Of a stretch of 32,000 nucleotides of DNA, positions 2,789 through 15,018 are shown in pieces; position 1 is the stretch's first letter; each line of letters opens with the position of its first letter. A program made the position numbers and the translations under genes. Where the stretch lies: the NCBI RefSeq assembly GCF_000025685.1, contig NC_013967.1, positions 330,001-362,000 on the forward strand. Reading direction: 5' to 3'. The notes below the pieces were generated by a model. That model searched no databases, was not told the DNA's origin, and saw only the letters and a list, made by a program, of their open reading frames with translations. This DNA is from Haloferax volcanii DS2 (GTDB lineage: Archaea; Halobacteriota; Halobacteria; Halobacteriales; Haloferacaceae).

Positions 2789-2943
2789 CAATCATCGACC
2801 TCCGTGGTTGTGAGTGTCACGTCTCCATCATCTCCAACCGTCATCTCGATGACTGTCAGATGCTCCGATTCGTCTCCAAACTCGAAGCGGTAAGTCTCTC
2901 CTTCCTCGGCACTCCGTGGTCCGGGAAAATCGGGAATCTCCAT
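2788..2943 (-). CDS. Small acidic protein (51 aa)
   Basis: Not in the track. ATG at 2943 forms a TAATG overlap with the stop of 2943..3431. Translation: MEIPDFPGPRSAEEGETYRFEFGDESEHLTVIEMTVGDDGDVTLTTTEVDD. It fills the gap between neighbours exactly. Confidence 0.5.
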   Translation of the reverse strand: MEIPDFPGPRSAEEGETYRFEFGDESEHLTVIEMTVGDDGDVTLTTTEVDD

Positions 2944-3431
2944 TAGTAGCTGACCTCCTCGAAGACGAATTTGATTTCCCGGTGTCCTGTCTGGTCCGCA
3001 GTCAGATTGTTACCGTTGTAGGTGATGCGGATGCTTTTTGACTCCGTTGCTTTGAGGTTCGTGAGCGCATTCAGCGACGCCGCAGTATCTTGCGGAGCCG
3101 CCGAGTTGACACTCCACGTCGAGTTCCGCCAGTAGACGGCATCGTCGTCCGGGCCGCCTCCGTTCATCATCCGAACGTGGCCCGCGCTCCACACGTAGAA
3201 GAAATGGTCTCCAGAGCCGTCTCCTCCGGGGTTTGGAGCTTCGAGCTCCATCCCGATGACCTTCCAGACCTTGCCCTCTGGAGCGTAGATGTTGGTCGTC
3301 TGCTTCGAACCAGCCGCGACGGTCGCGGTCTGGCCGAACGACTTGGTGACGATGGTTGGTCGGTTGTTCACGGCGAGTGTCTCGCCGCTCCCTTTTGTTC
3401 CGGACTGTCCCCACGGTGCACGACCGGGCAT
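2943..3431 (-). CDS. Beta-rich protein, structural (capsid-like) candidate (162 aa)
   Basis: Clean acidic/polar ORF with alternating-pattern strands (KVWKVIGMELEA, HFFYVWSAGHVRMM, SIRITYNGNNL, EIKFVFEEVSY) and no TM helix. Its start shares one base with the upstream stop. Confidence 0.8.
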   Translation of the reverse strand: MPGRAPWGQSGTKGSGETLAVNNRPTIVTKSFGQTATVAAGSKQTTNIYAPEGKVWKVIGMELEAPNPGGDGSGDHFFYVWSAGHVRMMNGGGPDDDAVYWRNSTWSVNSAAPQDTAASLNALTNLKATESKSIRITYNGNNLTADQTGHREIKFVFEEVSY

Positions 3432-4391: not shown

Positions 4392-4589
4392 TTAGACCCC
4401 CGGAATGTTCACGTCATCATCGGTGACGCCGGCCTTCTGCCGTGCGGTGTTGTACAGATACGCTCCTGCTCCGACGACGGCCATCGTGAGGGTGACGCCG
4501 ATAACCCCGAGACCGAGGTTCTGTGCGGATTCACCGGGGTCGTCAGTATCGACCTCGATGCCGAGTAGTTCAAGTGGTACTTTCGTCAT
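4392..4589 (-). CDS. Small membrane protein (65 aa), first gene of the minus-strand chain
   Basis: Single TM helix LGLGVIGVTLTMAVVGAGAYLY. A TATA-like CTTTTTCA (plus-strand 4614-4621) lies about 25-32 nt upstream of the ATG, as expected for a leaderless haloarchaeal mRNA. Confidence 0.7.
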   Translation of the reverse strand: MTKVPLELLGIEVDTDDPGESAQNLGLGVIGVTLTMAVVGAGAYLYNTARQKAGVTDDDVNIPGV

Positions 4590-4640
4590 TCCATTTCCGA
4601 CAACGAGCGATTGTGAAAAAGTTCGAAGTGTAGTGGAATA

Positions 4641-4665
4641 CGCTCAACAATTCAATTATTGAGCG
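4641..4665. promoter_or_regulatory. Palindromic operator candidate between divergent promoters
   Basis: cgctcaa-caattcaatta-ttgagcg has 7-bp perfect arms and contains the inner palindrome tcaat-t-attga (4652-4662). It sits between TATA-like elements at 4614-4621 (minus operon) and 4679-4687 (plus operon). The same 11-mer recurs at 9798-9808. Confidence 0.55.
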
Positions 4666-4718
4666 TCGTACAGCACTCGTTATTTTACATTCACGGTCGA
4701 CTGACTGTTCGACACAGT

Positions 4719-4901
4719 ATGATTGGCTACCCGACACTAGTTCTCGGCACGCTCGTGGCCTATCTCCGGGCTTCGGACGAGACGAGACCATTCGTGAAAG
4801 GAGCGTTCGGAATCGGCATCCTCGGCGAGTGTGGCGCACTCAGCGGTGCAGTACACTTCACTCAGTCGGGCGTCTCGATGCTCGGAGGGCTCATCGCATG
4901 A
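4719..4901 (+). CDS. Small membrane protein (60 aa)
   Basis: Internal ATG of listed ORF 4659..4901. Two hydrophobic segments (YPTLVLGTLVAYL, AFGIGILGECGALSGAV). Its stop overlaps the next start (ATGA). Confidence 0.5.
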   Translation: MIGYPTLVLGTLVAYLRASDETRPFVKGAFGIGILGECGALSGAVHFTQSGVSMLGGLIA

Positions 4902-5359
4902 ACGGCAGTAAAGAGCCTCAGAACCCCACGGACCAGCAATGCGAGCATTGCGGGCTGTTCTACGCGGCGCAGGGAATCCACAACCACCGGCCGGGGTGCC
5001 CGCTTCGAGACTGGGACACGATGATTCAGCCCCTCGACGGCGCTGGTGAGCCAGCCGGCGAGCGCGGTTCAGTCCCCGATAGTGACCCGGCGAACCCGCC
5101 CGAATCGGGGGACATCGAAGTGTCGGACACTCAGAAGGCGATGACCGACGGCGGAAACCCCATCCACGGCGCGCCTGAGCCCGTCACGGACGGCGGCAAG
5201 GACACTGAGGAGGTCGACGGGTGTCCCGACTGCGGGTCGGACGACTACGTCGACGCCGACGCTGTTCTGCGCGCTCGCAACCCGTCCGCGAAGAACACGG
5301 CGGTCCTGACCCAGTACGACCGCGTCTGCATCGAGTGCGGGGAGGCGTACGATGCCTGA
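4898..5359 (+). CDS. Zinc-ribbon protein (153 aa)
   Basis: Start MNGSKEPQ at ATG 4898. Has CEHCG...H...C near the N-terminus and CPDCG...CIECG at the C-terminus, with an acidic linker between them. Confidence 0.75.
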   Translation: MNGSKEPQNPTDQQCEHCGLFYAAQGIHNHRPGCPLRDWDTMIQPLDGAGEPAGERGSVPDSDPANPPESGDIEVSDTQKAMTDGGNPIHGAPEPVTDGGKDTEEVDGCPDCGSDDYVDADAVLRARNPSAKNTAVLTQYDRVCIECGEAYDA

Positions 5360-5792
5360 GGACGGCGAGACACCGTCCCCACCGTCGCCGGGCGACACGT
5401 TCGTCCGTGACGCCGGCGTCCCGAACATGGGCGCTACGGCGAACCACGCGGCTGCTGAGGGTGCGCCCGCGGAGGAGTCGGTGGGGTCGTCGTCGACGCT
5501 CCGCGACATGGTGCTCTCGACAGAACCGAAGCGGTCGCTCGACGAAATCGAATCGCCGTGGGCTCCGGAGCGCGGCGGCCCGAAGCGGGTCTTCCGCGGG
5601 TTCCAGAAGATGGGCGACATCGACGGGATGCCCGCCGGCTTCGACGTAGTCGTCGGGCTCGCCGAGACGGCCGTCCTGATTCTCGACCACGTCGAGGAGC
5701 AGAACGACGGCGACCAGAGCGACGACGCGGGTCAGAACGACGAGGACCTCGACGACGACCTCGCGCCGCTCGCGGGTGTCGGAGGTGCGTGA
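5352..5792 (+). CDS. Acidic hypothetical protein (146 aa)
   Basis: Its start overlaps the upstream stop (ATGCCTGA). One hydrophobic stretch (FDVVVGLAETAVLILD) and a D/E/Q-rich tail. Confidence 0.7.
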   Translation: MPEDGETPSPPSPGDTFVRDAGVPNMGATANHAAAEGAPAEESVGSSSTLRDMVLSTEPKRSLDEIESPWAPERGGPKRVFRGFQKMGDIDGMPAGFDVVVGLAETAVLILDHVEEQNDGDQSDDAGQNDEDLDDDLAPLAGVGGA

Positions 5793-5794
5793 CG

Positions 5795-6409
5795 ATGCAG
5801 GCGTACCACACGGTCGTCACCGGCGACTCCGGCGGCGGGAAGACGACCCTGCTGCGCGAGATGCAAGCCGAGTTCCCCGGTCTGAGTATCTGGGTCAACT
5901 TCACCAACACCGACGGCATCACCGGGCGCGACCTCGACGACGCCGCGACGGTCCGGTCGGTCGGCGAAGCTCGCGCGTCGGACGCGACGCGACTGAACTG
6001 GGTGACCGACTCCCCGCTCGAAACGGCGCGGCAGGCGCGGACGGTCGCCCACGAGTATCACGAGGCGACGGGCTTCCCGACGCAGGTCATCTTCGACGAG
6101 GCGCAGAACGTCCTTCCCGACGGCGAGGTCGAGTCGGACAACCCGGTGAAGCGGATGCTCCACGAGGACCGCGACAAGGGGCTGAAGGTCGTTATCGCCA
6201 CGCAGGACCCCTCGGACCTCGATTACACGCCCATCAAGCAATGCAAGTTCTGGGTGTGGGTCGGTGAGTGGGCCGTGTTCCACGACGGCTTTCTGCGGTA
6301 CTTCTCGATACCGCGCGACGACCTCCCGACCGAGCCGTACCAGTACGTCGTCTTCGACAAGCGGATGAACGTGCTGCACCGCGCGGAGACGCAGGAGGCG
6401 TACGCATGA
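5795..6409 (+). CDS. P-loop NTPase, FtsK/HerA- or A32-like packaging ATPase candidate (204 aa)
   Basis: Walker A is VVTGDSGGGKTT and Walker B is QVIFDEAQ. These are followed by KVVIATQDPSDLDYTPIKQCKFWVWV, which resembles the hhhh-S/T-Q...P..hR.N motif of small viral packaging ATPases. The start is ATG 5795, or GTG 5789 overlapping the upstream stop. Confidence 0.85.
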   Translation: MQAYHTVVTGDSGGGKTTLLREMQAEFPGLSIWVNFTNTDGITGRDLDDAATVRSVGEARASDATRLNWVTDSPLETARQARTVAHEYHEATGFPTQVIFDEAQNVLPDGEVESDNPVKRMLHEDRDKGLKVVIATQDPSDLDYTPIKQCKFWVWVGEWAVFHDGFLRYFSIPRDDLPTEPYQYVVFDKRMNVLHRAETQEAYA

Positions 6410-6630
6410 ACACGCACTTCCGATTCGGCGGGACGCGGGTGTATCTCCAGCCGGTCGAGGACGACGAGACCGATGTCGTTGACGCGCTTCGGACGCTCGC
6501 GGAGTGGCTATCGGAGGACGTCGTCTCGTGGTGGACCTACGACGTGCCGCCAGAGTCGCAGATACAGGACCCCCTGACGACCGACGCGAAGAAGGCACTC
6601 GTCATCTCGTGGGGTGAGTCGCGTGAGTGA
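6406..6630 (+). CDS. Hypothetical protein (74 aa)
   Basis: ATGA overlap with the ATPase stop. Acidic composition; translation begins MNTHFRFGGTRVYLQPVEDDETDVVDALRTLAEW. Confidence 0.65.
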   Translation: MNTHFRFGGTRVYLQPVEDDETDVVDALRTLAEWLSEDVVSWWTYDVPPESQIQDPLTTDAKKALVISWGESRE

Positions 6631-6769
6631 CGACCTCCTCCTTCCACCGCCTGAGCCACCCAGTCCGTCGAGTCGATTGTTCGGCGTCGTCGGAGAGTTG
6701 GTCGGCCTCGCGGCCGCGGTCTACGTCGCGGCGCGCGCGGCTCGTCGAGGATGGAGGGACGGCCGGTGA
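6623..6769 (+). CDS. Small membrane protein (48 aa)
   Basis: Not in the track. GTG 6623 overlaps the upstream stop by 8 nt. Translation: MSDDLLLPPPEPPSPSSRLFGVVGELVGLAAAVYVAARAARRGWRDGR, with one TM helix. Confidence 0.45.
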   Translation: MSDDLLLPPPEPPSPSSRLFGVVGELVGLAAAVYVAARAARRGWRDGR

Positions 6770-6912
6770 CTGCCCCCGTCGTTCCGGCTGACATCGCGTT
6801 TCTCGCGGTCTCAGTCGCGACGACCTTCTCGTTCGTGGCCGGGTTCCTCGGTGGACTGAACGCAGGGATGTCGCTCTACCGACCGATGGTCGACACAGTT
6901 CTCGACCTATGA
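6766..6912 (+). CDS. Small membrane protein (48 aa)
   Basis: Not in the track. GTGA start/stop overlap. Translation: VTAPVVPADIAFLAVSVATTFSFVAGFLGGLNAGMSLYRPMVDTVLDL, which is hydrophobic. Confidence 0.45.
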   Translation: MTAPVVPADIAFLAVSVATTFSFVAGFLGGLNAGMSLYRPMVDTVLDL

Positions 6913-7088
6913 CTTGCACACGACCGCGGCCGACGTGCTACGAGTGCGGGCGTCGTCAATGTGTCCGCTGTGGGCGTTGTTACGAGAACCACATTCAGTT
7001 CGAGCACTACTCCGTTACTCACTCGAAGCGGTGTCCGTCGTACTTGTGCCGTCTTATCAAGCGACTCCGGCCCGCCACGTACTATTGA
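6909..7088 (+). CDS. Cys-rich zinc-finger mini-protein (59 aa)
   Basis: Not in the track. ATGA overlap with the upstream stop. Translation: MTCTRPRPTCYECGRRQCVRCGRCYENHIQFEHYSVTHSKRCPSYLCRLIKRLRPATYY, with CxxC-x4-CxxC plus further C/H residues. The listed ORFs 6914..7192 and 6961..7158 are in other frames. Confidence 0.5.
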   Translation: MTCTRPRPTCYECGRRQCVRCGRCYENHIQFEHYSVTHSKRCPSYLCRLIKRLRPATYY

Positions 7089-7198
7089 CTCTCCGAAAAC
7101 ACCTGAGAGTCGGAAAGAATCGACTCGATTTCAGTCTTCGACACGGGGAAAAGACTAGGATACTGGCGCTATTCTTCCGAGATGTGAGGTAACCGGAA

Positions 7199-7783
7199 AT
7201 GAAGATGCAGGACTACGAGAGCAAGGACGGGAAGAAGGTGTGGCTCAGTCGGAGCGAGGTTGATACACTCCTCGACGTCGCCGACGGGACTGAGCAGCGA
7301 GTCGCGTTCGCCCTCGGTGCGCGATGTGGGCTCCGTGTCGCGGAGGTCGTGGAAGTCACGCCCGACGACGTAGTCGACACGGAGGTCGGGAAGTTCCTCC
7401 GGGTGTGGGAGGGGAAGGGTTCGAAGTACCGAGAGACGCCCATCCCGACTGACCTCGCGGCGACGATCGCGGCGGTCGGCGACTATCGCGACGAGTCGAG
7501 CGATACACCCGTCGTCGACCGGACGACTCGAACCGTACGGAACTGGGTCACCAAGGCTGGCGACCAGCTGGTCGAGGAGACCGAGGACGTTGGCTGGTCG
7601 TTCCTCGGCCCGCACGACCTCCGACGGACGTGGGGGACGCTACTGGTCGGTGCGGAGGTCGAGCCCGGACTGGTGATGGAGTGGGGCGGTTGGGAGGACT
7701 GGGAGACGTTCAGAGAACACTACCTCGGTGCATACAGTCTCGAAGCACAGGCGCGTGGGATGGGCAAAATCGAGTGGTTGTGA
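7199..7783 (+). CDS. Short tyrosine recombinase / integrase (catalytic domain only, 194 aa)
   Basis: The catalytic signature is readable: GLRVAEV (Arg), GKGSKYRETPIP (Lys hairpin), HDLRRTW (H-x-x-R), GGWEDWETF (Trp) and REHYLG (Tyr). Confidence 0.85.
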   Translation: MKMQDYESKDGKKVWLSRSEVDTLLDVADGTEQRVAFALGARCGLRVAEVVEVTPDDVVDTEVGKFLRVWEGKGSKYRETPIPTDLAATIAAVGDYRDESSDTPVVDRTTRTVRNWVTKAGDQLVEETEDVGWSFLGPHDLRRTWGTLLVGAEVEPGLVMEWGGWEDWETFREHYLGAYSLEAQARGMGKIEWL

Positions 7784-7798
7784 GATAGCGCCGTACGG

Positions 7799-8116
7799 CT
7801 ATGCGTCAGCCACCTGCTGCTGTATCTTTACTACTATAAATCTCAATGCTCCGAACGTAACTAATAGCGATACTACGATCACGGAATCACTACTTCCTGG
7901 TATTGCTGACCTCCAGAATCCTGCCACCGTGAATACACAAAGGATGGCGGATTTGAGAATTATATTTAGATCATCTGCGATTATCTGAACAGTCTCGGAT
8001 TGGGACTTAAAGAACATATAGCCGAGTATGATGAGAGTGACACCAGCAATAGCTGCGACCCCCGTATTATCTGTACTTGCTATCGCTGATATTGCTTCGG
8101 CAAAATCAATCTGCAT
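7799..8116 (-). CDS. Membrane protein (105 aa), AT-rich island
   Basis: About three hydrophobic helices (GVAAIAGVTLIILGYMFF, ILCVFTVAGFW, VIVVSLLVTFGALRFIVV). Its start overlaps the upstream stop by 11 nt (ATGCAGATTGA). Confidence 0.65.
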   Translation of the reverse strand: MQIDFAEAISAIASTDNTGVAAIAGVTLIILGYMFFKSQSETVQIIADDLNIILKSAILCVFTVAGFWRSAIPGSSDSVIVVSLLVTFGALRFIVVKIQQQVADA

Positions 8117-8621
8117 AGTGTAGTGCCGTCACTATCAGAATAGCCGCCCCAGCTAAAGCGATAAGAATACTCTGGAGATAGAATGCGAGCATGAACGTCA
8201 CTATACCCAGAGCGTACAGAGTCGCTACTGGGTGGTCCAGTAACGCGATATCTAGCACTCTAGAGAGTGACGATTGAGCAGTCATGTCTACCTCCTCTGT
8301 GTCTGTAACAAGGTCGTGTGGCTGTATATTCTCTCCGATTACCCCAAGTTGTTGCTCACTAAATGATTTAGCGACCTCTGAGTAGAAGTCTGGATTCTGC
8401 ACTTTAGACAAACCAGAGTCCAAAGGATTTACTGCATGAAACAGAACTTCTTCCTTAGCGAGCCTTTCTGAGATCTCTGCGGCAGACATCTCGATTATTT
8501 GCTGCTTGGCTTCTGGAGGGAGATCCTCCCACTCCAACTCGTCTTGTTGGACGCGGAAATTTCCGGATGGTGTATTTCCGAGGCCGCCCTCATCGACCTG
8601 TGGTCCTCCGTTATGAGTCAT
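8106..8621 (-). CDS. Protein with soluble acidic N-domain and two C-terminal TM helices (171 aa), AT-rich island
   Basis: Start chosen at MTHNGGPQ (ATG 8621), which overlaps the upstream stop by 11 nt (ATGACTCATAA). The C-terminus is VATLYALGIVTFMLAFYLQSILIALAGAAILIVTAL. Confidence 0.6.
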   Translation of the reverse strand: MTHNGGPQVDEGGLGNTPSGNFRVQQDELEWEDLPPEAKQQIIEMSAAEISERLAKEEVLFHAVNPLDSGLSKVQNPDFYSEVAKSFSEQQLGVIGENIQPHDLVTDTEEVDMTAQSSLSRVLDIALLDHPVATLYALGIVTFMLAFYLQSILIALAGAAILIVTALHYAD

Positions 8622-9210
8622 CCTTGTGCCCTTCTGACGAAAGTTGGTATAGTTGACGGAGCGATTCATTTTCGTTCACTCTCAGAACTTGGCTGTGTTT
8701 TGCATTCTCTGAGCCGTCGTCGTCCCGGAAACGGAGTCGGTCAACATCATCTGTCGATGGTTGAATCTCTATCTGCATGATTCCATCAACACTCGGGGAA
8801 GGCAAATCGAATTGATATGTGTGACTCTCTCCAGGGACGATCTCTAGTGGTTCGTATTCCGCTGTACTGCTTAACCTCGCGCCGCCAGCAATGTGTTGTG
8901 TCTGTTCTACTCTGTTGAATCCCACCTCAATCGGGTGGTCCCCAGTATACTCAAAAAGGATCTCATAATACCATGGCAAGCCTTCGATTATGTCGCTTCC
9001 AGAAGCTAAATTGACAAAATCAGAAACCGGCTTGAATTTCTCCCAAGTGAGGTCGGTCCCTTTGAGATCTTCCTCAGATATCTCTCGCGCATCTTTCTCT
9101 GCGAAACTTGATGGGACTGTCCCGTATTCAATTCCAAACTCTCCCGGGATGTCTGCCGCATCTCTTATTCGAGGCCCAGCCCGCTTGCCTGTGATCTCTA
9201 AGTATTCCAT
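8611..9210 (-). CDS. Hypothetical soluble protein (199 aa), AT-rich island
   Basis: Unambiguous ORF in low-GC DNA. The C-terminal half has beta-sandwich-like alternation (PIEVGFNRVEQ, EPLEIVPGESHTYQFDL, GIMQIEIQP). No motif recognised. Confidence 0.7.
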   Translation of the reverse strand: MEYLEITGKRAGPRIRDAADIPGEFGIEYGTVPSSFAEKDAREISEEDLKGTDLTWEKFKPVSDFVNLASGSDIIEGLPWYYEILFEYTGDHPIEVGFNRVEQTQHIAGGARLSSTAEYEPLEIVPGESHTYQFDLPSPSVDGIMQIEIQPSTDDVDRLRFRDDDGSENAKHSQVLRVNENESLRQLYQLSSEGHKDDS

Positions 9211-9219
9211 CGTTCTAGT

Positions 9220-9306
9220 TTAGCTGTCGCCAATCTCACGCTTCTGCCGGTCAACTTCCTTTCTGACTGTCGCCTCAATAAGGTCTAGCCGTTCATTCGC
9301 TACCAT
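9220..9306 (-). CDS. Possible 28-aa helical peptide
   Basis: Not in the track. ATG 9306-9304 overlaps the stop of 9300..9581. Translation: MVANERLDLIEATVRKEVDRQKREIGDS. It ends 9 nt before the next gene and fills an otherwise unexplained gap. Confidence 0.3.
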   Translation of the reverse strand: MVANERLDLIEATVRKEVDRQKREIGDS

Positions 9307-9581
9307 GGAGGCGCAGGTCGATTCGCTTCTTCGATCACTTCCATCTGTTCAACGAACCCACTACTCCGCCAGTCTGACCTCGGTTCAGAGTATTTCCCGA
9401 TTTTGTAAATCGGACCAGACTCCTCAACAGAAAACGCCACATCGTCTATTTCCCACCGCGTCCCGTTTCTGTCTTCCAGAGTATCTCCAACCCAGAATTT
9501 GCATGACCGAGATAGCTCCTTCTTCAGGCGGTTTGAGTGCTCCCAGTTAAATTGTCTCACGTATCCTACACCTACGTTCAA
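9300..9581 (-). CDS. Hypothetical protein (93 aa), downstream partner of the RHH gene
   Basis: 4-nt start/stop overlap with the RHH gene. Rich in W/K/R/E; translation begins MNVGVGYVRQFNWEHSNRLKKELSRSCKFWVGDTLEDRNGTRWEIDD. No known toxin motif recognised. Confidence 0.65.
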   Translation of the reverse strand: MNVGVGYVRQFNWEHSNRLKKELSRSCKFWVGDTLEDRNGTRWEIDDVAFSVEESGPIYKIGKYSEPRSDWRSSGFVEQMEVIEEANRPAPPW

Positions 9582-9793
9582 TCCTCGTCTTCTTCGCTGG
9601 CAAGCAGAGACGGGTCCTCAATCGCCATCTTCATCAAACGGCGAATTGCCTCGCTTCGAGACATATCCATGGGTAGCTCCCCGTTTAACTGACCTCTCTT
9701 TATCGCGCGGTCGAAGTCTTCGACGAAGTCGTCGCCCACTTTGAGAGAAATGTTCCGGGAACCGCTTCCGTCCGTATCGTAGGCGGTGCTCAT
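9578..9793 (-). CDS. Ribbon-helix-helix (CopG-like) protein (71 aa)
   Basis: RNISLKVGDDFVEDFDRAI...SRSEAIRRLMKMAI fits the strand-helix-helix pattern. First gene of the AT-rich operon. Palindromic sites lie directly upstream. Confidence 0.75.
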   Translation of the reverse strand: MSTAYDTDGSGSRNISLKVGDDFVEDFDRAIKRGQLNGELPMDMSRSEAIRRLMKMAIEDPSLLASEEDED

Positions 9794-9795
9794 AC

Positions 9796-9822
9796 AATCA
9801 ATTATTGATTCAATGATTGAAT
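9796..9822. promoter_or_regulatory. Two adjacent palindromic operator candidates (TCAAT-N-ATTGA x2)
   Basis: aatcaat-t-attgatt (9796-9810) is a perfect 15-bp palindrome. attcaa-tga-ttgaat (9808-9822) has 6-bp perfect arms around a 3-nt spacer and overlaps the first by 3 nt. They start 3 nt upstream of the RHH ATG (9793), over the expected TATA position. The core is identical to 4652-4662. Confidence 0.6.
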
Positions 9823-9875
9823 ACCTTGGGAAGATACTACCTCGTTGATGTGGTCGCTTAGGGAGTAAGTAATAA

Positions 9876-9887
9876 GTAACTCGTTAC
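9876..9887. promoter_or_regulatory. Short palindrome gtaac-tc-gttac next to TATA-like gtaataag upstream of 9904
   Basis: The TATA-like element at 9869-9876 lies about 30 nt upstream of ATG 9904. The palindrome lies between the TATA element and the start. Confidence 0.3.
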
Positions 9888-9903
9888 AATACTACCAAGC
9901 GCA

Positions 9904-10089
9904 ATGGAAGTCTCAGTAAACGTGAGCATCTCCATGCCGCCGGAGATGCTAGAGAAAATCGACGAAAACGCCCGAGCTCACGGGAAATCGCGTGCGGCGT
10001 ACGTCCGTCACCTCATCCAGCAGGCACCGGACTCACCGTTCGAGACGCCCGAACTCCAACTGACCGACGAACCGCCCGCAGAAGCATGA
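9904..10089 (+). CDS. CopG/RHH family transcriptional regulator (61 aa)
   Basis: VSISMPPEMLEKIDENARAHGKSRAAYVRHLI is a typical RHH signature. The gene is divergent from the other RHH gene. Confidence 0.8.
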   Translation: MEVSVNVSISMPPEMLEKIDENARAHGKSRAAYVRHLIQQAPDSPFETPELQLTDEPPAEA

Positions 10090-10198
10090 ACAGGGGACCG
10101 TCCAAAGCGCCTGCCAGCAACCCGGAGGTCCCCGATTCGGAGCAGTCGCGCGCGGCACGTAAGTCCAGCGTTGCGTACTGCGTCGAGGTGTTCTGACC

Positions 10199-10432
10199 GT
10201 GAGTGACGATTCGTTCGACGTGAAGCTCGTCGTCACCCGCGGCACCGGGTCGCAGGACAAGGAGAAGATGCAGGTCGAGGTCTCGGCCGACTCGCTCGAA
10301 GAACTCGACGAGAAGGTGAACGGTGCCCGCGAGCGACTGCGCGAGTGGGCTGACGACATCCGCACCATCCAGCCGGACGGTCGCCGTCGACACGACGACG
10401 CCCAGACGGAACTCGGAGGTGCCAGCGCGTGA
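10199..10432 (+). CDS. Hypothetical acidic protein (77 aa)
   Basis: Clean acidic ORF; translation begins MSDDSFDVKLVVTRGTGSQDKEKMQVEVSADSLEELDEKV. Its stop overlaps the next start. Confidence 0.7.
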   Translation: MSDDSFDVKLVVTRGTGSQDKEKMQVEVSADSLEELDEKVNGARERLREWADDIRTIQPDGRRRHDDAQTELGGASA

Positions 10433-10620
10433 GCGCCCAGACGAACCTCGGGACGTTTACCGCCGGACTCTCGCCCGCGGAGACCGACGCCTATCTCGCC
10501 GTCGACGAGGGCGACGAGACGCCGACCGAGTTCGCACGCCGGACCGGACGTGACCCGTCGACTGTGCGGACGCTCCTGTACCGCGCTCGGCGCAAGCTCG
10601 ACAAGCGGGGTGGAGCGTGA
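10429..10620 (+). CDS. Small HTH protein (sigma-70 region-4-like helix-turn-helix, 63 aa)
   Basis: TPTEFARRTGRDPSTVRTLLYRARRKL resembles the region-4/LuxR-type HTH pattern (xxEiAxxxGxSxxTVxxxLxRARxKL). Confidence 0.65.
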   Translation: MSAQTNLGTFTAGLSPAETDAYLAVDEGDETPTEFARRTGRDPSTVRTLLYRARRKLDKRGGA

Positions 10621-10787
10621 CCGACCTCGAAATCATCGCTCAAATCGGTGAAGCGTGGGATTCAGAAACCGCCAGAGAGGTCAACAACAACCTCGACGAC
10701 GACGACCTCGGCATCATCCACGACATCAGCCGTAGCGGCGCGCACTACCTCGTTCGGTGGCCTGACGAAACGGAGGGAGACGAGTGA
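10617..10787 (+). CDS. Small acidic protein (56 aa)
   Basis: Not in the track. GTGA overlaps at both ends. Translation: MTDLEIIAQIGEAWDSETAREVNNNLDDDDLGIIHDISRSGAHYLVRWPDETEGDE. The listed R-rich ORF 10648..11928 is an off-frame artefact. Confidence 0.5.
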   Translation: MTDLEIIAQIGEAWDSETAREVNNNLDDDDLGIIHDISRSGAHYLVRWPDETEGDE

Positions 10788-11785
10788 CCGACCTCGAACC
10801 GCTCTCCCCCGAGGAGGGCGTCACGCGCTTCCTGCGTCACCGCGAACCGAGCGTCCGCGACTCGACCCTGCAGAACTCGCGCACTCGGCTGAACCACTTC
10901 CTCGACTGGTGCGAGGAGGTCGGCATCGAGAACCTGAACGACCTGTCCGGCCGCGACCTCGCCGACTTCGTCGCGTGGCGCCGAGGCGACATCGCGCCCA
11001 TCACGCTCCAGAAGCAACTGAGCACCGTGCGGGCGGCGCTCGGTTTCTGGGCCGACATCGAGGGCGTCGAGGACGGCCTTCGCGAGCGCGTTCACGCGCC
11101 GGAGCTTCCCGACGGTGCCGAGGCGCGCGACGTCCACCTGTCGGCGGACCGCGCCGAATCGATTCTCGACTACCTCGACCGCTACCAGTACGCCAGCCGC
11201 GAGCACGTCATCATGGCGTTGCTCTGGCGAACCGGAATGCGTCGGGGTGCGCTTCGGGCGCTCGATGTCGGCGACCTGCACGCCGACGACCACGCCGTCG
11301 AGTTGGTCCATCGGCCGGAGACCGATACCGCTCTGAAGAACGGCACGAAGGGCGAGCGGTGGGTCTACCTCGGTCCCGAGTGGTTCGAGGTCGTCGACGA
11401 GTACGCCGCGACGAACCGGCACGATGTCGTCGACGACCACGGCCGCCGCCCGCTGATAACGTCGAAGTACGGCCGTCCGACCGGCGATACCATCTACAAG
11501 TGGGTCGGGAAGCTGACGCGCCCCTGCGAGTACGGCGACTGTCCGCACGACCGCGAGCGAGCGACGTGCGACGCGGTCGGGTCAGACGGCTATCCGAGTC
11601 GGTGCCCGTCGTCGCGGTCGCCCCACGCCGTTCGTCGAGGACACATCACGGCCTACCTGAACCGCGAGGTCTCGCCGGAGACGATTTCGGAGCGGTCGGA
11701 CGTGTCGCTCGACATCCTGTACCAGCACTACGACGCGCGGACCCCGCGCGAGAAGATGAACGTTCGAATCCAGAACCTGCCATGA
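10784..11785 (+). CDS. Tyrosine recombinase / phage-type integrase (333 aa)
   Basis: N-terminal SAM-like core-binding region (VRDSTLQNSRTRLNHFLDWCE). Catalytic motifs: TGMRRGA (Arg), HAVRRGH (H-x-x-R) and ILYQHYD (Tyr). A Cys/His-rich insert CEYGDCPHDRERATCDAVGSDGYPSRCP precedes the HxxR. Confidence 0.9.
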   Translation: MTDLEPLSPEEGVTRFLRHREPSVRDSTLQNSRTRLNHFLDWCEEVGIENLNDLSGRDLADFVAWRRGDIAPITLQKQLSTVRAALGFWADIEGVEDGLRERVHAPELPDGAEARDVHLSADRAESILDYLDRYQYASREHVIMALLWRTGMRRGALRALDVGDLHADDHAVELVHRPETDTALKNGTKGERWVYLGPEWFEVVDEYAATNRHDVVDDHGRRPLITSKYGRPTGDTIYKWVGKLTRPCEYGDCPHDRERATCDAVGSDGYPSRCPSSRSPHAVRRGHITAYLNREVSPETISERSDVSLDILYQHYDARTPREKMNVRIQNLP

Positions 11786-11832
11786 GTCACAACACTACCT
11801 GCCAGCCGCACAGCCCCGTGCGATTCCCGACC

Positions 11833-11925
11833 GGGACCTTCCCCGCGAGTCCACTACCATTTTCGCGACGCAACTCAGCGAGTCGTGACTCCGCGAGGAG
11901 TCCGACGAGTACCTCCTGCGTCGCG
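11833..11925. repeat. Direct repeat copy 1 (about 90 bp)
   Basis: gggaccttccccgcgagtccactaccattttcgcgacgcaac...gagtcgtgactcc...ctgcgtcgcg is repeated at 12154-12243, by eye about 80-85 percent identical. It contains a 9-bp inverted repeat cgcgacgca/tgcgtcgcg enclosing smaller hairpins. Confidence 0.75.
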
Positions 11926-11944
11926 TGATGTAGTGCCTGTTTGA

Positions 11945-12022
11945 GCGGGGATTTGAATCAGGGAACGAGAGGTGAGCGAGCAGCGCGAGCGAACGGGAGT
12001 GACCGTGGTTCAATATCCCCGC
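11945..12022. repeat. Imperfect inverted repeat (about 15-bp arms) with T-loop-like sequence
   Basis: gcggggatttgaatc (11945-11959) pairs with ggttcaatatccccgc (12007-12022). The arms resemble a tRNA T-loop/3' end (TTCAAATCCCCGC), but no cloverleaf can be folded. Confidence 0.55.
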
Positions 12023-12121
12023 GAGTCCATTTCCTTCCGTCACTTCGTTCCGTCAGTCACTGGACTCGCTTGCCCCCACTCGCTTCGTCTGCGAGCGACC
12101 CGTGAGTCGCCCGCATGGCCA

Positions 12122-12144
12122 GCGAGACGACACGGTCGTCTCGC
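12122..12144. other. Perfect 10-bp stem hairpin gcgagacgac-acg-gtcgtctcgc
   Basis: Read directly from the sequence. It lies 10 nt upstream of repeat copy 2. Confidence 0.6.
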
Positions 12145-12153
12145 ACTGCTCGT

Positions 12154-12243
12154 GGGGACCCCGCAAGTCCACTACCATTTTCGCGACGCAACACGACGAG
12201 TCGTGACTCCGTCAGGAGCCCTGCGAGTATCAACTGCGTCGCG
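12154..12243. repeat. Direct repeat copy 2 (about 90 bp)
   Basis: ggggaccccgcaagtccactaccattttcgcgacgcaac...gagtcgtgactcc...ctgcgtcgcg. See copy 1. The outer 9-bp inverted repeat is conserved. Confidence 0.75.
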
Positions 12244-12264
12244 AACAGATGTACGTCCCGTTTC

Positions 12265-12510
12265 TCATTGCCGTCCAATGCCGAGTTGATATGCCGCGAA
12301 GTACGAACTGAACATCGATATGGCAAGTAGAGTGCAGTACGTGCTTATAAAATAGAGAAGTTCAACGATTGAATTCGGTGAGCTGATACCAAGAAATCGA
12401 GATACGACCGCAGCGAATCCAATCGAAGGAAACGAAACAATCACCAGTACAGATCTACTGGACCATGCGCTGGACCGCCCCAGCATGAAGTCTTTTGGAG
12501 GGACGTCCAT
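12265..12510 (-). CDS. Small membrane protein (81 aa) in AT-rich DNA
   Basis: Hydrophobic segments VLVIVSFPSIGFAAVV and LLYFISTYCTLLAISMFSSYFAAY. The palindromic TATA-like attttaaaat (12534-12543) is centred about 28 nt upstream of the ATG. Confidence 0.5.
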   Translation of the reverse strand: MDVPPKDFMLGRSSAWSSRSVLVIVSFPSIGFAAVVSRFLGISSPNSIVELLYFISTYCTLLAISMFSSYFAAYQLGIGRQ

Positions 12511-12533
12511 AGTCTCATCGTACGCAGAGAATT

Positions 12534-12543
12534 ATTTTAAAAT
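12534..12543 (-). promoter_or_regulatory. TATA-box-like palindrome attttaaaat
   Basis: Its position relative to ATG 12510 fits a leaderless haloarchaeal promoter. Confidence 0.45.
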
Positions 12544-12849
12544 TGTCATTTCTGCACAGTACCTCACAGCCTAGGCTACCGCTGTTTTTGTGACGCTTCC
12601 CACCGTGGTGAATACTGAGTCGTCGCGCTCTACGACTACACAATCGCGACCCGAACGAAGTACCACTCCCCGTCGTACCGGACGAGCTCGGGCCGGTCAG
12701 CGTTGCTGAACGAAAACCGGCTTTGTTCGTCGTCCGAGCGTGACTCGGCCGTCGAGCGCGCTCGGAAACATCGTTCACTTCCGCCGAACCCGACACTTTC
12801 ACCCCGCTCATGGCGGACCCTCTTACCGTCTCGCTCCGAGGGCGTCGGT

Positions 12850-13224
12850 ATGGAAACACGACGAGGCGAACCCCCGTCGGACCCGACGGCCCTCTTTCGA
12901 GCAATCGTCTCGAAACTCCGCGAGACGCGCCGCGGGGTCCACCAACACCGGATGGCGCAGGCGTTGCTCCAGAGAGACGCCAACGGCTCGCGGCTGGTCG
13001 GACTCGCCGCGGACACCCAGCGGGCGGTCTTCTTCAACCCCGCGTCGCGGACGCTCGAACTGATACCGTTCGACCGGGAGGGAACGCACGAGGAGCGCGC
13101 GGAGGTGCTGTCGCGTCGGCTGAGCGACCCGTCGTCGTGGGTCGAGGCCAACGCCGCGGGGCTGTCGTGGGTGCACCCGCACTTCCGGTGGGTCTGCGGG
13201 CTGGACGACGCTGGACGGTCGTGA
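12850..13224 (+). CDS. Hypothetical protein (124 aa)
   Basis: Internal ATG of listed ORF 12703..13224. From METRRGEPPSDPTALFRAIV onward, third positions are strongly GC-rich and the composition is protein-like. The competing minus-strand ORFs are S/R-rich. Confidence 0.55.
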   Translation: METRRGEPPSDPTALFRAIVSKLRETRRGVHQHRMAQALLQRDANGSRLVGLAADTQRAVFFNPASRTLELIPFDREGTHEERAEVLSRRLSDPSSWVEANAAGLSWVHPHFRWVCGLDDAGRS

Positions 13225-13272
13225 GCCGGCAGTCGCGAGTCGGCAATCCGCTGTCACGTCCGACCGTGACCG

Positions 13273-13560
13273 ATGTCCGACCGTGAAGAATTATACGCAC
13301 GCCGCGCGCACAACACGTCCATGAACGACGAGGAACTCGACGAACTCCGGTCGTCGCTCACGCCCTACGAGTCCAACGGCGGCGTCACCACCTACCAAAA
13401 CACCGTCTCTATCGCCTGTCCGGCGTGCGAGAAGCCGTTCGACGACTTGGTCGTCTGCGAGAACGACTACAACAGCCTCGAACTGAGCATGATGCTCGAC
13501 CTCTGTGTGACCCAACACGACGGCGACGTGCTCCTGTTCACGCACAAACAAGAGGAGTAA
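13273..13560 (+). CDS. Small conserved-type acidic protein with CPAC motif (95 aa)
   Basis: Clean acidic ORF containing SIACPACEKPFDDLVVCEN. No function recognised. Confidence 0.7.
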   Translation: MSDREELYARRAHNTSMNDEELDELRSSLTPYESNGGVTTYQNTVSIACPACEKPFDDLVVCENDYNSLELSMMLDLCVTQHDGDVLLFTHKQEE

Positions 13561-13698
13561 GCGGTCGTGGCGGTCGGACGCGGGCCACCGTTTCAGCCTC
13601 CCGGTTACGAGTCCGTCACTCCGCGCCCGTCTCGCCAGTCGCGGCCGGTGGATTCTCGTCGGCCAAAAACAAGTGGTCGAACGGGAGCGACCGCCGGG

Positions 13699-15018
13699 TT
13701 ATTCCTGCGGCGGGAGGCCGTTTTCGTCGATGACCTCGCCGTCGTCGTCGACGGTGACGATGCCGCGGTTGTTGACCGCGTAGGGGTCCAAGCCGACCTC
13801 TTGGAGGAACTGCTTGTAGAGTCGCTCGGCCGTCTCGGCGTCTTTCTGGCGGTCCGAGGCGCGGTCGCAGAGTTCGACGAGGTCTTCGGGTACGTCGTTT
13901 TCGTGGACGATCCAGTGGTTGATGAGGTCCGACAGCCGGCGGATTGGCGAGGTGAAGTGGCCGTAGATGTCGAAGTTGAGCGCGTAGTGGCCGCCGAAGG
14001 GGTCGTTCATGTACTTCGCGCGGGGCATGACCTTCAGCACGGCGCGCTGAATCTTGTTGAGCGTGCGGGAGTTCGCGCTCTCCAAGGCGTCGTTGACGGC
14101 CTTTCGGGGCTCGTCCCACGACGTAGACTGGATGCTCACGCCGTCGAGTTCGGTGATTTCGCGGAGCGCCTTGTCCCACTGGTCGGGAGTCGGCTGCGGG
14201 TGGACGCGGTACATCGCCTCGACGCCGCGGTTCCACATGAGTTCGTGCGTGACGGCCTTGTTCGCCTTCAGCATGCACTCCTCGATGATGGTGTGGGCGC
14301 GGTCGCGGCTCGGGTTGAGGACGAGCGAGCCGTCTTCCTTGCGCTGTTCGTGGAGTTGGTCCGCGAGGTCGAAGACCAGCGCGTTCTCCTCGTGGAGGGG
14401 GAGGTCGGGGTCTTCCAGCCGGTTTTCACACTGCGTGTAGGTGAGCCGTTCGTTGGAGTGGATGACGGACTTGTAGATGTCGATAGACTCGAACGAGAGC
14501 GTGTCCTTCTTGATTTCCATCTCGACGGTGTGGGCGAGGCGGTCCTCCTCGGGGACGAGAGAACAGACCGTCTCGGCCAGCGCCGGCGGGAGCATGTGGA
14601 TGGTGTAGGCGGGGAGGTAGACGGTGTTGCCGCGCTTGACGGCCTCGGCCCACATCTCCGAGCCGGGGTGGACGTAGTGGGTCACGTCGGCGATGTGGAC
14701 CCACAGCGTGTACGTCTCCTCGTTCTCGCGGATGCTCAGGGCGTCGTCGAAGTCCTGGGCGTCGACGGGGTCGGTCGTCCACGTCGTGAGGTCGCGGAGG
14801 TCTTTGCGGTGTTCGAGTTCGTCTTCGATCTCCTCGTGGACGCCGTCGGTGCGCGCACGCGCCTCCGAGAGGACTTCCGGCGGGAACGCGTCACGAATCT
14901 CGAACTCCTCGAACAGTTCCTCGCGCTTGTTCTGGAGGTGTCGCGCGAGTTCGGCGTCTATCTCCACCGGTCCTTGCCCTTCGGCGGTCCCGGCGTACGC
15001 CTGCGCGTCGTCTGACAT
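13699..15018 (-). CDS. rnr: RNase R / RNase II family exoribonuclease (RNB domain only, 439 aa)
   Basis: RNB motifs are readable: DPVDAQDFDDALS, LWVHIADVTHYV, TVYLPAYTIHMLP and FTSPIRRLSDLINH. Start taken at MSDDAQAY (ATG 15018). A GTG at 15060 is an alternative. Confidence 0.85.
   Translation of the reverse strand: MSDDAQAYAGTAEGQGPVEIDAELARHLQNKREELFEEFEIRDAFPPEVLSEARARTDGVHEEIEDELEHRKDLRDLTTWTTDPVDAQDFDDALSIRENEETYTLWVHIADVTHYVHPGSEMWAEAVKRGNTVYLPAYTIHMLPPALAETVCSLVPEEDRLAHTVEMEIKKDTLSFESIDIYKSVIHSNERLTYTQCENRLEDPDLPLHEENALVFDLADQLHEQRKEDGSLVLNPSRDRAHTIIEECMLKANKAVTHELMWNRGVEAMYRVHPQPTPDQWDKALREITELDGVSIQSTSWDEPRKAVNDALESANSRTLNKIQRAVLKVMPRAKYMNDPFGGHYALNFDIYGHFTSPIRRLSDLINHWIVHENDVPEDLVELCDRASDRQKDAETAERLYKQFLQEVGLDPYAVNNRGIVTVDDDGEVIDENGLPPQE

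Follow-up and report, generated by a model that had tools for sequence, protein, structure and literature searches.

The 32,000-nt stretch of Haloferax volcanii DS2 analyzed here (contig NC_013967.1, positions 330,001 to 362,000; hereafter the window) contains an AT-rich island at positions 7790-9900, which lies within the provirus Halfvol2. The first-pass annotation, made from the sequence alone, had taken the island for cargo inside a mobile element, and Halfvol2 is that element. The provirus (CP001956 nt 329565-341853) is 12,275 bp long, is integrated at tRNA-Ala-CGC between 14-nt tRNA-derived repeats and encodes two integrases, and its excision and circularization have been demonstrated (PMC7911831, PMC12091111). 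It has been classed as a 'novel group' and is probably lipid-enveloped, with many transmembrane (TM) proteins and no identified capsid protein (PMC7911831, PMC12091111). The left end of Halfvol2 and the tRNA lie about 0.4 kb to the left of the window, which is why a tRNA search of the window found none; a scan of positions 6000-13000 against Rfam found no RNA family. The right attachment (att) repeat, TCCCCGCGAGTCCA, is located at 11840-11853 on the plus strand and equals the 3' end of tRNA-Ala-CGC. On its left side, the island abuts HVO_0379, the gene for the internal tyrosine recombinase (194 amino acids (aa); 7199-7783, plus strand; Pfam Phage_integrase, E 3.9e-16), which has been named a 'phage type integrase' (PMC3460438). 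On its right side, it ends at a switch region between two divergent ribbon-helix-helix (RHH) genes. The island is the variable accessory region of Halfvol2, bounded by the HVO_0379 stop codon and the divergent RHH switch region.

Six tightly packed open reading frames (ORFs) on the minus strand fill the island, with the same lengths, overlaps of 4, 7, 11 and 11 nt and 9-nt gap as described in the first-pass annotation. In the order of transcription, they are RHH71, the first gene of the minus-strand transcription unit (71 aa; 9578-9793), p93 (9300-9581; 93 aa from a TTG, or 86 aa from the GTG at 9560, the latter being the more likely start), p28 (28 aa; 9220-9306), p199 (199 aa; 8611-9210), p171 (171 aa, or 187 aa from an upstream ATG; 8106-8621) and TM105 (105 aa; 7799-8116). 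The last three genes are referred to as the trio. The GC content of 7790-9900 is 0.481 (48.1%), compared with 0.667 (66.7%) for the remainder of the window, and this is the lowest-GC 2.1-kb stretch of the 32 kb (mean 0.654, sd 0.049). Both edges are sharp: the left one, at ~7780, coincides with the stop codon of the integrase (7783), and the right one, at ~9940, falls within the first codons of the divergent gene RHH61. The GC content at third codon positions (GC3) is 0.42-0.47 in the trio (0.42 in TM105) versus 0.81-0.92 in the neighboring provirus genes. The island thus combines a distinct composition with module boundaries, forming a slot from the integrase stop to the switch region as expected of cargo ('moron') genes. 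Smaller GC dips (0.53-0.56) occur in or beside the provirus at ~2800-3200, 4400-4800, 6800-7200 and 12000-12800; those at 4400-4800 and 6800-7200 coincide with divergent-promoter or intergenic regions, and the one at 2943-3431 with a gene that has only 36-45% identity (tblastn) to its AS1 and H. marisrubri counterparts.

The sharp GC drop and the foreign-looking base composition reported in the first-pass annotation were upheld, and its flanking samples were reproduced exactly (0.650 for 7381-7440 and 0.633 for 9961-10020). All of the cassette products have acidic isoelectric points (4.2-4.4), consistent with the halophile origin that it had proposed. Its suggestion of acquisition from a low-GC lineage, read as a recent event, is too simple, because the trio module is AT-rich in three separate hosts with 65-70% GC, across saturated synonymous divergence. 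Low GC is a stable trait of the module.

To define the anatomy of the island, we compared four Halfvol2-type elements, from H. volcanii, Haloferax sp. AS1, H. mucosum and H. marisrubri. The 194-aa integrase is 97-99% identical in the other three elements, and homology among the four stops exactly at its stop codon. Beyond this point, H. volcanii carries both the RHH71+p93 module and the trio. The AS1 element has a 78-aa leader gene followed by 199-, 167- and 107-aa genes, with neither RHH71 nor p93. In H. mucosum, RHH71+p93 abut the integrase directly and there is no trio; in H. marisrubri, which also lacks the trio, RHH71+p93 are accompanied by an unrelated 168-aa, N-terminally anchored protein in the slot. 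The island is therefore a composite of two separable modules joined by recombination. The four-way DNA alignment places the junction at 9293-9302, where the H. volcanii DNA is of the H. marisrubri type up to the p93 stop codon (CCATGGTAG, 9300-9302) and of the AS1 type beyond it. The blastn match to AS1 ends at 9293, so that the joint falls within ~10 nt of the p93 stop codon. The ORF p28 is a chimera created at this junction: its ATG comes from the p93 end (CCATGGTAG), and its residues 4-28 are the tail of the AS1-type leader, residues 54-78 of which are 72% identical (tblastn). The leader gene is intact in AS1 and its product matches phrog_30270 (E 4.6e-8).

These comparisons revised several first-pass claims. 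The single operon of five or six genes dissolved, since RHH71+p93 and the trio occur independently in the sister elements. The co-occurrence of the genes elsewhere was found for the trio, which recurs in AS1, and not for the full set. The proposed dedicated repressor did not survive, with RHH71+p93 found without the trio in H. mucosum and H. marisrubri, and the trio found without RHH71/p93 in AS1. The possible 28-aa peptide turned out to be the junction ORF, whose last 25 residues belong to the 78-aa AS1 leader.

The H. mucosum and H. marisrubri elements lack the trio and still have their two integrases, the ATPase, the backbone genes and the pair of 14-nt att copies, indicating that the trio is not needed by the virus lineage. 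Among these syntenic elements, the backbone genes are 70-100% identical and the trio is present in two of the four, the presence/absence pattern of cargo. A related arrangement was found on the Haladaptatus halobius plasmid unnamed5, in which a MazE/MazF (PemK) pair directly follows a 58%-identical homologue of the 194-aa integrase (Int194; locus positions 10733-11322), at the position equivalent to the Halfvol2 cargo slot. On the opposite flank of the 194-aa integrase, the AS1 element carries another AT-rich island (GC 0.39-0.51; locus coordinates 12001-14000), whose 139-aa and 220-aa genes are of unknown family and which H. volcanii lacks (window 6409-7089); variable cargo thus borders the internal integrase on either side.

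We then evaluated the divergence of the trio against that of the backbone. The backbone proteins of H. volcanii and AS1 share 96-100% identity, and the synonymous divergence (dS) of their genes is 0.06-0.16. For the trio, the identities with the AS1 orthologues are 55% for p199 (199 aa), 53-55% for p171 (167 aa) and 36% (global) or 40% (tblastn local) for TM105 (107 aa), with a saturated dS of 2.5-3.5 and ratios of nonsynonymous to synonymous divergence (dN/dS) of 0.10, 0.12 and 0.23, respectively. By this measure the trio is under purifying selection, and its alleles are far older than the provirus backbones (dS ~3 versus ~0.1). Diversifying selection in place was rejected as the cause of the divergence because of the saturated dS and low dN/dS, which point to replacement by a long-diverged allele. 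The 11-nt overlaps between the trio genes are conserved in AS1, and the AS1 copy is equally AT-rich (0.44-0.48 GC). The coding status of the trio is real, given the dN/dS of 0.10-0.23 against AS1 and the detection of two of the proteins by mass spectrometry (MS; see below).

The first trio protein, p199, is soluble and acidic, without a signal peptide. Its AlphaFold2 (AF2) model (predicted local distance difference test score (pLDDT) 73.5, predicted template modeling score 0.63) shows an N-terminal strand, short helices, an immunoglobulin (Ig)-like beta-sandwich at residues 80-178 and, at 182-193, a C-terminal helix that is the family's most conserved segment. The beta-sandwich that the first-pass annotation had placed in the C-terminal half was thereby recovered. 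Foldseek against the PDB returned generic Ig-like sandwiches (ApaG, arrestin-N, PDE-delta and Fn3-like), all with E >= 1.1e-3, and against BFVD no viral match at E < 1e-3. A capsid jelly-roll assignment for p199 was rejected in view of the fold searches and of its absence from the sister elements. The second protein, p171, has an acidic N-terminal region and, by hydropathy, two C-terminal TM segments; this TM hairpin is nearly invariant in the AS1 orthologue. Its AF2 model, of low confidence (pLDDT 53.8) and too poor for a fold search, has a disordered or helical acidic region and C-terminal helices at 115-170. The third, TM105, has TM segments at 17-38, 45-68 and 76-99 by hydropathy, so that the two and three TM helices assigned in the first pass to p171 and TM105 both stood.

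Apart from weak RHH signals, no match to the cassette proteins came up in Pfam, PHROGs, PADLOC or NCBIfam, and thus the profile and structure searches agree with the first-pass annotation, which had recognized no family other than the RHH. The six proteins had no defence match in PADLOC-DB v2 at E <= 1, and the AS1, Halobacterium noricense and alternative-cargo proteins gave only chance-level matches there. As for a holin-endolysin module, small TM proteins are present, but sequence and fold searches found no hydrolase domain in p199 or p171, and the module is absent in the sister viruses.

The trio is extremely rare. An exhaustive hidden Markov model search with p199 of 1.84 billion representative proteins found, beyond AS1, just two relatives: P0037 (E 1e-12), on a 1.1-kb contig, and P0038 (E 3e-5), from Halobacterium noricense. 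Word-index protein searches recovered the same four lineages only, and the p171 family is confined to these Haloferax lineages among 5.8 billion proteins. In blastn and tblastn searches of the PLSDB plasmids and INPHARED phages, nothing matched p199, p171, p93 or the AS1 leader, and only integrases were hit; no loci emerged when p199 and p171 alignments were run against IMG/VR and the JGI metagenomes, or Int194 against IMG/VR. The Halobacterium noricense relative is encoded by the first gene of a tightly packed, trio-like islet (locus 9755-11230), whose products are a soluble protein of 192 aa, a second of 135 aa that is acidic at the N-terminus and carries two TM segments at the C-terminus, and a third of 76 aa with two TM segments. 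The islet has 0.50-0.57 GC in a 0.70 GC chromosome, and starts directly after tRNA-Ile-GAT, beside fxsA. No integrase or virus genes were found in its neighborhood, and no tRNA-Ile 3'-end repeat of at least 10 nt at its far edge. Its second and third genes resemble p171 and TM105 in architecture only.

Published data indicate that part of the trio is expressed. Among the Halfvol2 proteins, only HVO_0379A and HVO_0379B were found by MS in supernatant preparations (PMC12091111, Table 5), with equal spectral counts of 19 and 19 in the cesium chloride (CsCl) band (PMC12091111, section 29). We mapped the locus tags partly via PMC3460438 and PMC12091111: HVO_0377 is the ATPase (5795-6409), HVO_0381 is RHH61, HVO_0382 is the DUF7389 gene, HVO_0385 is the 333-aa integrase and, by elimination from the tag order, HVO_0380 is probably RHH71. 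The p171 and p199 genes bear the later-added accessions AOP12808 and AOP12809, and are most probably the HVO_0379A/B pair, because they are the only later-added genes between HVO_0379 and HVO_0380. From their order, p171 is probably HVO_0379A (AOP12808) and p199 HVO_0379B (AOP12809). The CsCl band contained mainly membrane-associated cellular proteins, together with cytoplasmic, non-virion Halfvol4 proteins (a restriction-modification (RM) system and Avs2) (PMC12091111), and the detection of the pair therefore indicates expression rather than virion membership. Since Halfvol2 excision is spontaneous but rare, the MS cultures were mostly lysogenic (PMC12091111). Hence, HVO_0379A/B appear to be expressed in a mostly lysogenic culture, and they are probably membrane-associated. 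There is no T-run of at least 6 in the sense strand across the cassette, so cotranscription of the trio with the RHH71 unit seems plausible. At the distal end, the TM105 stop (7799) and the HVO_0379 stop (7783) are convergent, with 15 nt between them and no obvious terminator; transcription running on from the cassette would be antisense to the HVO_0379 integrase.

The upstream module consists of RHH71 and p93. RHH71 is probably an RHH regulator, as suggested by its alignments: it matches Pfam RHH_1 with E 1.3e-3 (19.1 bits, under the 20.5-bit cut-off, with only helix 2 aligned) and, by hhalign, the RHH61 family with E 1.1e-3 over the full strand-helix-helix, with an 8-residue loop insertion. 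It had no match among the PDB sequences, and NCBI labels the H. marisrubri orthologue as an RHH protein. Its small, acidic partner p93 accompanies it in three of the proviruses (97% identity in H. marisrubri, 76% in H. mucosum), is absent from the AS1 element, and had no match in Pfam, PHROG, PADLOC, NCBIfam or the PDB sequences. The divergent intergenic region (9794-9903), between RHH71 and RHH61, contains two abutting perfect 13-nt palindromes, ATCAATtATTGAT (9797-9809) and TTCAATgATTGAA (9809-9821), which were read from the sequence; a separate repeat search partly recovered the inverted repeat. The pair begins 4 nt from the RHH71 start codon and is a putative operator, a palindromic site at the gene's own promoter, as expected for an RHH regulator. 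H. mucosum and H. marisrubri have a near-identical region with both palindromes conserved, and that of AS1 is different. RHH61 (9904-10089, plus strand) is a confident CopG-type RHH (Pfam RHH_1, E 3.5e-7) that shares 98% identity with the H. mucosum protein but just 70-74% with those of AS1 and H. marisrubri; the DUF7389 gene that follows is conserved at 95-100% identity across the elements. This pattern points to allele shuffling of RHH61 in the switch region. RHH71+p93 is a regulator-led pair of the switch region of this provirus lineage, not dedicated to the membrane proteins.

Exclusion and abortive-infection morons of prophages are known beside the immunity region, with lambda cI-rexA-rexB, T4 Imm/Sp and P22 SieA/SieB as examples. 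Like them, the trio follows a regulator gene next to the switch region of a temperate element, combines soluble and small membrane products, and is dispensable and variable. It differs from them in lacking sequence or fold similarity, in its archaeal host and in its three genes, and the exclusion role proposed for it is drawn by analogy. Taken together, the trio is very probably an accessory, swappable membrane module of Halfvol2: its dispensability, the cassette exchange, the virus-free Halobacterium noricense copy and the MazEF pair in the equivalent slot fit a module that serves the lysogen. As for what it does, superinfection exclusion or defence, or a membrane-directed abortive response, is the leading candidate because of the analogy with phage morons beside immunity regions, and we propose it tentatively. 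The combined proposal, that Halfvol2 carries a swappable membrane module serving the lysogen, most likely by exclusion or abortive infection, is one that we favor with similar caution. A bolder version, in which the trio would be a new archaeal three-component anti-virus system of orphan families (exclusion or membrane-directed abortive infection) on a ~1.5-kb AT-rich mini-cassette swapped between provirus cargo slots and tRNA-adjacent chromosomal sites, is on the unlikely side.

In this proposal, transcription from the RHH71 promoter would read through into the trio in lysogens, with probable autoregulation of this promoter via the palindromes at 9797-9821, and p199, p171 and TM105 would be made by translational coupling. 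The three proteins may form a complex associated with the membrane, in which p199 would dock onto p171 at its cytoplasmic part. Such a complex would serve the lysogen, not the virion, and its likeliest role would be to block the entry, assembly or egress of competing membrane-interacting viruses, or to act as an abortive-infection effector. A precedent exists in the same host, in which the integrated provirus Halfvol3 modulates, and indeed limits, infection by another virus, HFPV-1 (PMC9436352). Halfvol3 differs in being an alphapleolipovirus with a repressor-like helix-turn-helix (HTH) protein, not a membrane module, as the proposed agent, and that study did not cover Halfvol2 (PMC9436352).

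Several points weigh against an anti-viral module. PADLOC, Pfam, NCBIfam and PHROG provide no link to a known defence, exclusion or toxin family, and no defence genes lie beside any of the trio occurrences. The matches of the second and third Halobacterium noricense genes to p171 and TM105 (hhalign, E 0.056 and 0.44) are not significant, the 1.1-kb P0037 contig has no room for partner genes, and a family of about four lineages is too small for co-occurrence statistics. Phenotypes are known only for the quadruple provirus deletion and none is assignable to Halfvol2 (PMC12091111). Moreover, MS detection in a virus-enriched fraction is also expected of a virion protein.

This last point leads to the possibility, which we consider improbable, that the trio has a virion or egress role in Halfvol2, either as an envelope- or capsid-associated module or as an exchangeable host-range module, its divergence then reflecting adaptation to host surfaces. 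In the CsCl virus-enriched band, HVO_0379A/B alone represent Halfvol2 (PMC12091111), but cytoplasmic Halfvol4 proteins turned up in the same MS fraction, and being found there does not prove that a protein belongs to the virion. The element has no identified capsid protein and is predicted to have a lipid envelope and many TM proteins (PMC7911831, PMC12091111). Its ATPase, HVO_0377, is similar to the packaging ATPases of icosahedral viruses that contain a membrane (PMC12091111); the capsid proteins of such viruses are beta-sandwiches, a fold that p199 also contains. Among archaeal viruses of this kind are the sphaerolipoviruses PH1 and SH1, and STIV2; the Halfvol2 ATPase is similar to their A32/FtsK-type packaging ATPases (PMC12091111), and they rely on small capsid proteins with a beta-sandwich fold as well as on small membrane proteins. 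However, the p199 model matches no such capsid protein, and the trio has an integrase between it and the ATPase, lies on the opposite strand and is missing in the sister elements. Its absence from two of the four elements, those of H. mucosum and H. marisrubri, which are otherwise syntenic and flanked by att sites, is at odds with the lineage-wide conservation expected of a virion gene, and the Halobacterium noricense islet stands without virus genes. In addition, p199 lacks a signal peptide, Foldseek searches of BFVD and the PDB gave no capsid or spike match, the trio has no PHROG or Pfam match to known virion proteins such as pleolipovirus VP3/VP4 or jelly-roll capsid proteins, a published Foldseek analysis was also negative (PMC12091111), and the dN/dS of 0.1-0.2 shows no diversifying selection.

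A comparably low probability applies to an addiction or toxin-antitoxin (TA)-like stabilizer, in which a toxic TM105 and/or p171 hairpin would be neutralized by the soluble partner, with RHH71+p93 separately or additionally acting as a type II TA pair. An RHH gene closely followed by a small-protein gene is the classic type II layout, and RHH71+p93 share with the systems that use RHH antitoxins (CopG/RelB/ParD) and with MazEF the mobile-element context and, at the promoter, the putative palindromic operator. Small size and several TM segments are typical of membrane toxins, MazEF occupies the equivalent slot next to the Int194 homologue on the Haladaptatus plasmid, and a stabilizer would be useful to an element with spontaneous excision (PMC12091111). 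Against this, p93 belongs to no toxin family in Pfam, NCBIfam, PADLOC, PHROGs or the PDB sequences and matches no solved structure, RHH71 is below the Pfam threshold, and the trio has no TA features by homology. Deletion of all four proviruses met with no reported difficulty (PMC12091111), the sister elements persist without the trio, and a conserved three-gene architecture under purifying selection would be unusual for a TA system. We assign an equally small likelihood to a host-benefit moron unrelated to viruses, for example a factor in membrane-associated ion or stress homeostasis or a cell-surface factor that raises lysogen fitness. The Halobacterium noricense copy is indeed chromosomal and sits amid housekeeping genes, and the weak best fold matches include ApaG-type domains, but none of these matches reaches significance. 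Motility, cell shape and H2O2 resistance are changed in the provirus-free strain (PMC12091111), but these phenotypes are not assigned to Halfvol2, and the extreme rarity (about four lineages among billions of proteins) together with the constant AT-richness fits a mobilome gene better. Finally, decaying foreign DNA with functionless ORFs would account for the atypical composition, the lack of homologues of known function and the chimeric remnant ORF p28. This explanation is strongly disfavored and highly improbable, in view of the dN/dS of 0.10-0.23 over saturated synonymous divergence, the conserved gene overlaps, the acidic products expected of halophile proteins and the MS detection of two proteins (PMC12091111).

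The provirus and its ORFs were already published, and the locus itself is not new. The published accounts deal with the same element and annotate HVO_0379A/B as conserved hypothetical proteins (PMC7911831, PMC12091111); the genes are uncharacterized there, and the available parts of these accounts do not describe the composite structure, the swapped trio, the junction ORF or the Halobacterium noricense relative. Relative to the same parts, the two-module dissection, the junction ORF, the dispensable MS-detected cargo, the contrast in allele age and the Halobacterium noricense relative appear to be new (PMC7911831, PMC12091111). H. volcanii is the main archaeal genetic model, and apart from CRISPR and RM, very few archaeal mechanisms of virus exclusion or defence have been elucidated. 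A 2.1-kb 'hypothetical' island has now been narrowed to a dispensable, expressed, selected and exchanged three-gene unit, which is a clean target in this organism; a provirus-free strain and viruses (HFPV-1, HFTV1 and induced proviruses) already exist. The analysis also offers an alternative reading of the published MS data, in which the two Halfvol2 proteins are probably accessory cargo, not missing structural proteins; if this is true, then the Halfvol2 capsid should be sought elsewhere. Even if the function proves mundane, the locus documents the recombinational refilling of cargo slots beside the internal integrase in haloarchaeal proviruses.

To the right of HVO_0385, three att-like copies of the tRNA-Ala 3' end are present at 11840-11853 (14 nt), 12016-12029 (15 nt) and ~12160 (degenerate), two of them inside ~85-bp direct repeats (11842-11925 and 12159-12243), which suggests remnants of serial integrations at the tRNA-Ala site. 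A 146-aa backbone gene (5352-5792, plus strand) just upstream of the packaging-type ATPase is a second hypervariable gene, GC-normal, with ~49-53% identity to its AS1 and H. marisrubri counterparts (dN/dS ~0.87) and with neighbors that are 97-100% identical. The small genes between DUF7389 and the 333-aa integrase (window 10429-10787; AS1 8763-9121; H. marisrubri element 12074-12304) are mosaic: H. volcanii has HTH63 followed by a 56-aa gene, AS1 has a different 56-aa gene before HTH63, and H. marisrubri has neither. CRISPR spacer C-14 of H. volcanii is reported to be similar to part of the Halfvol2 gene HVO_0372, in the left part of the window, and to match it identically save for a 9-nt stretch (PMC3460438).

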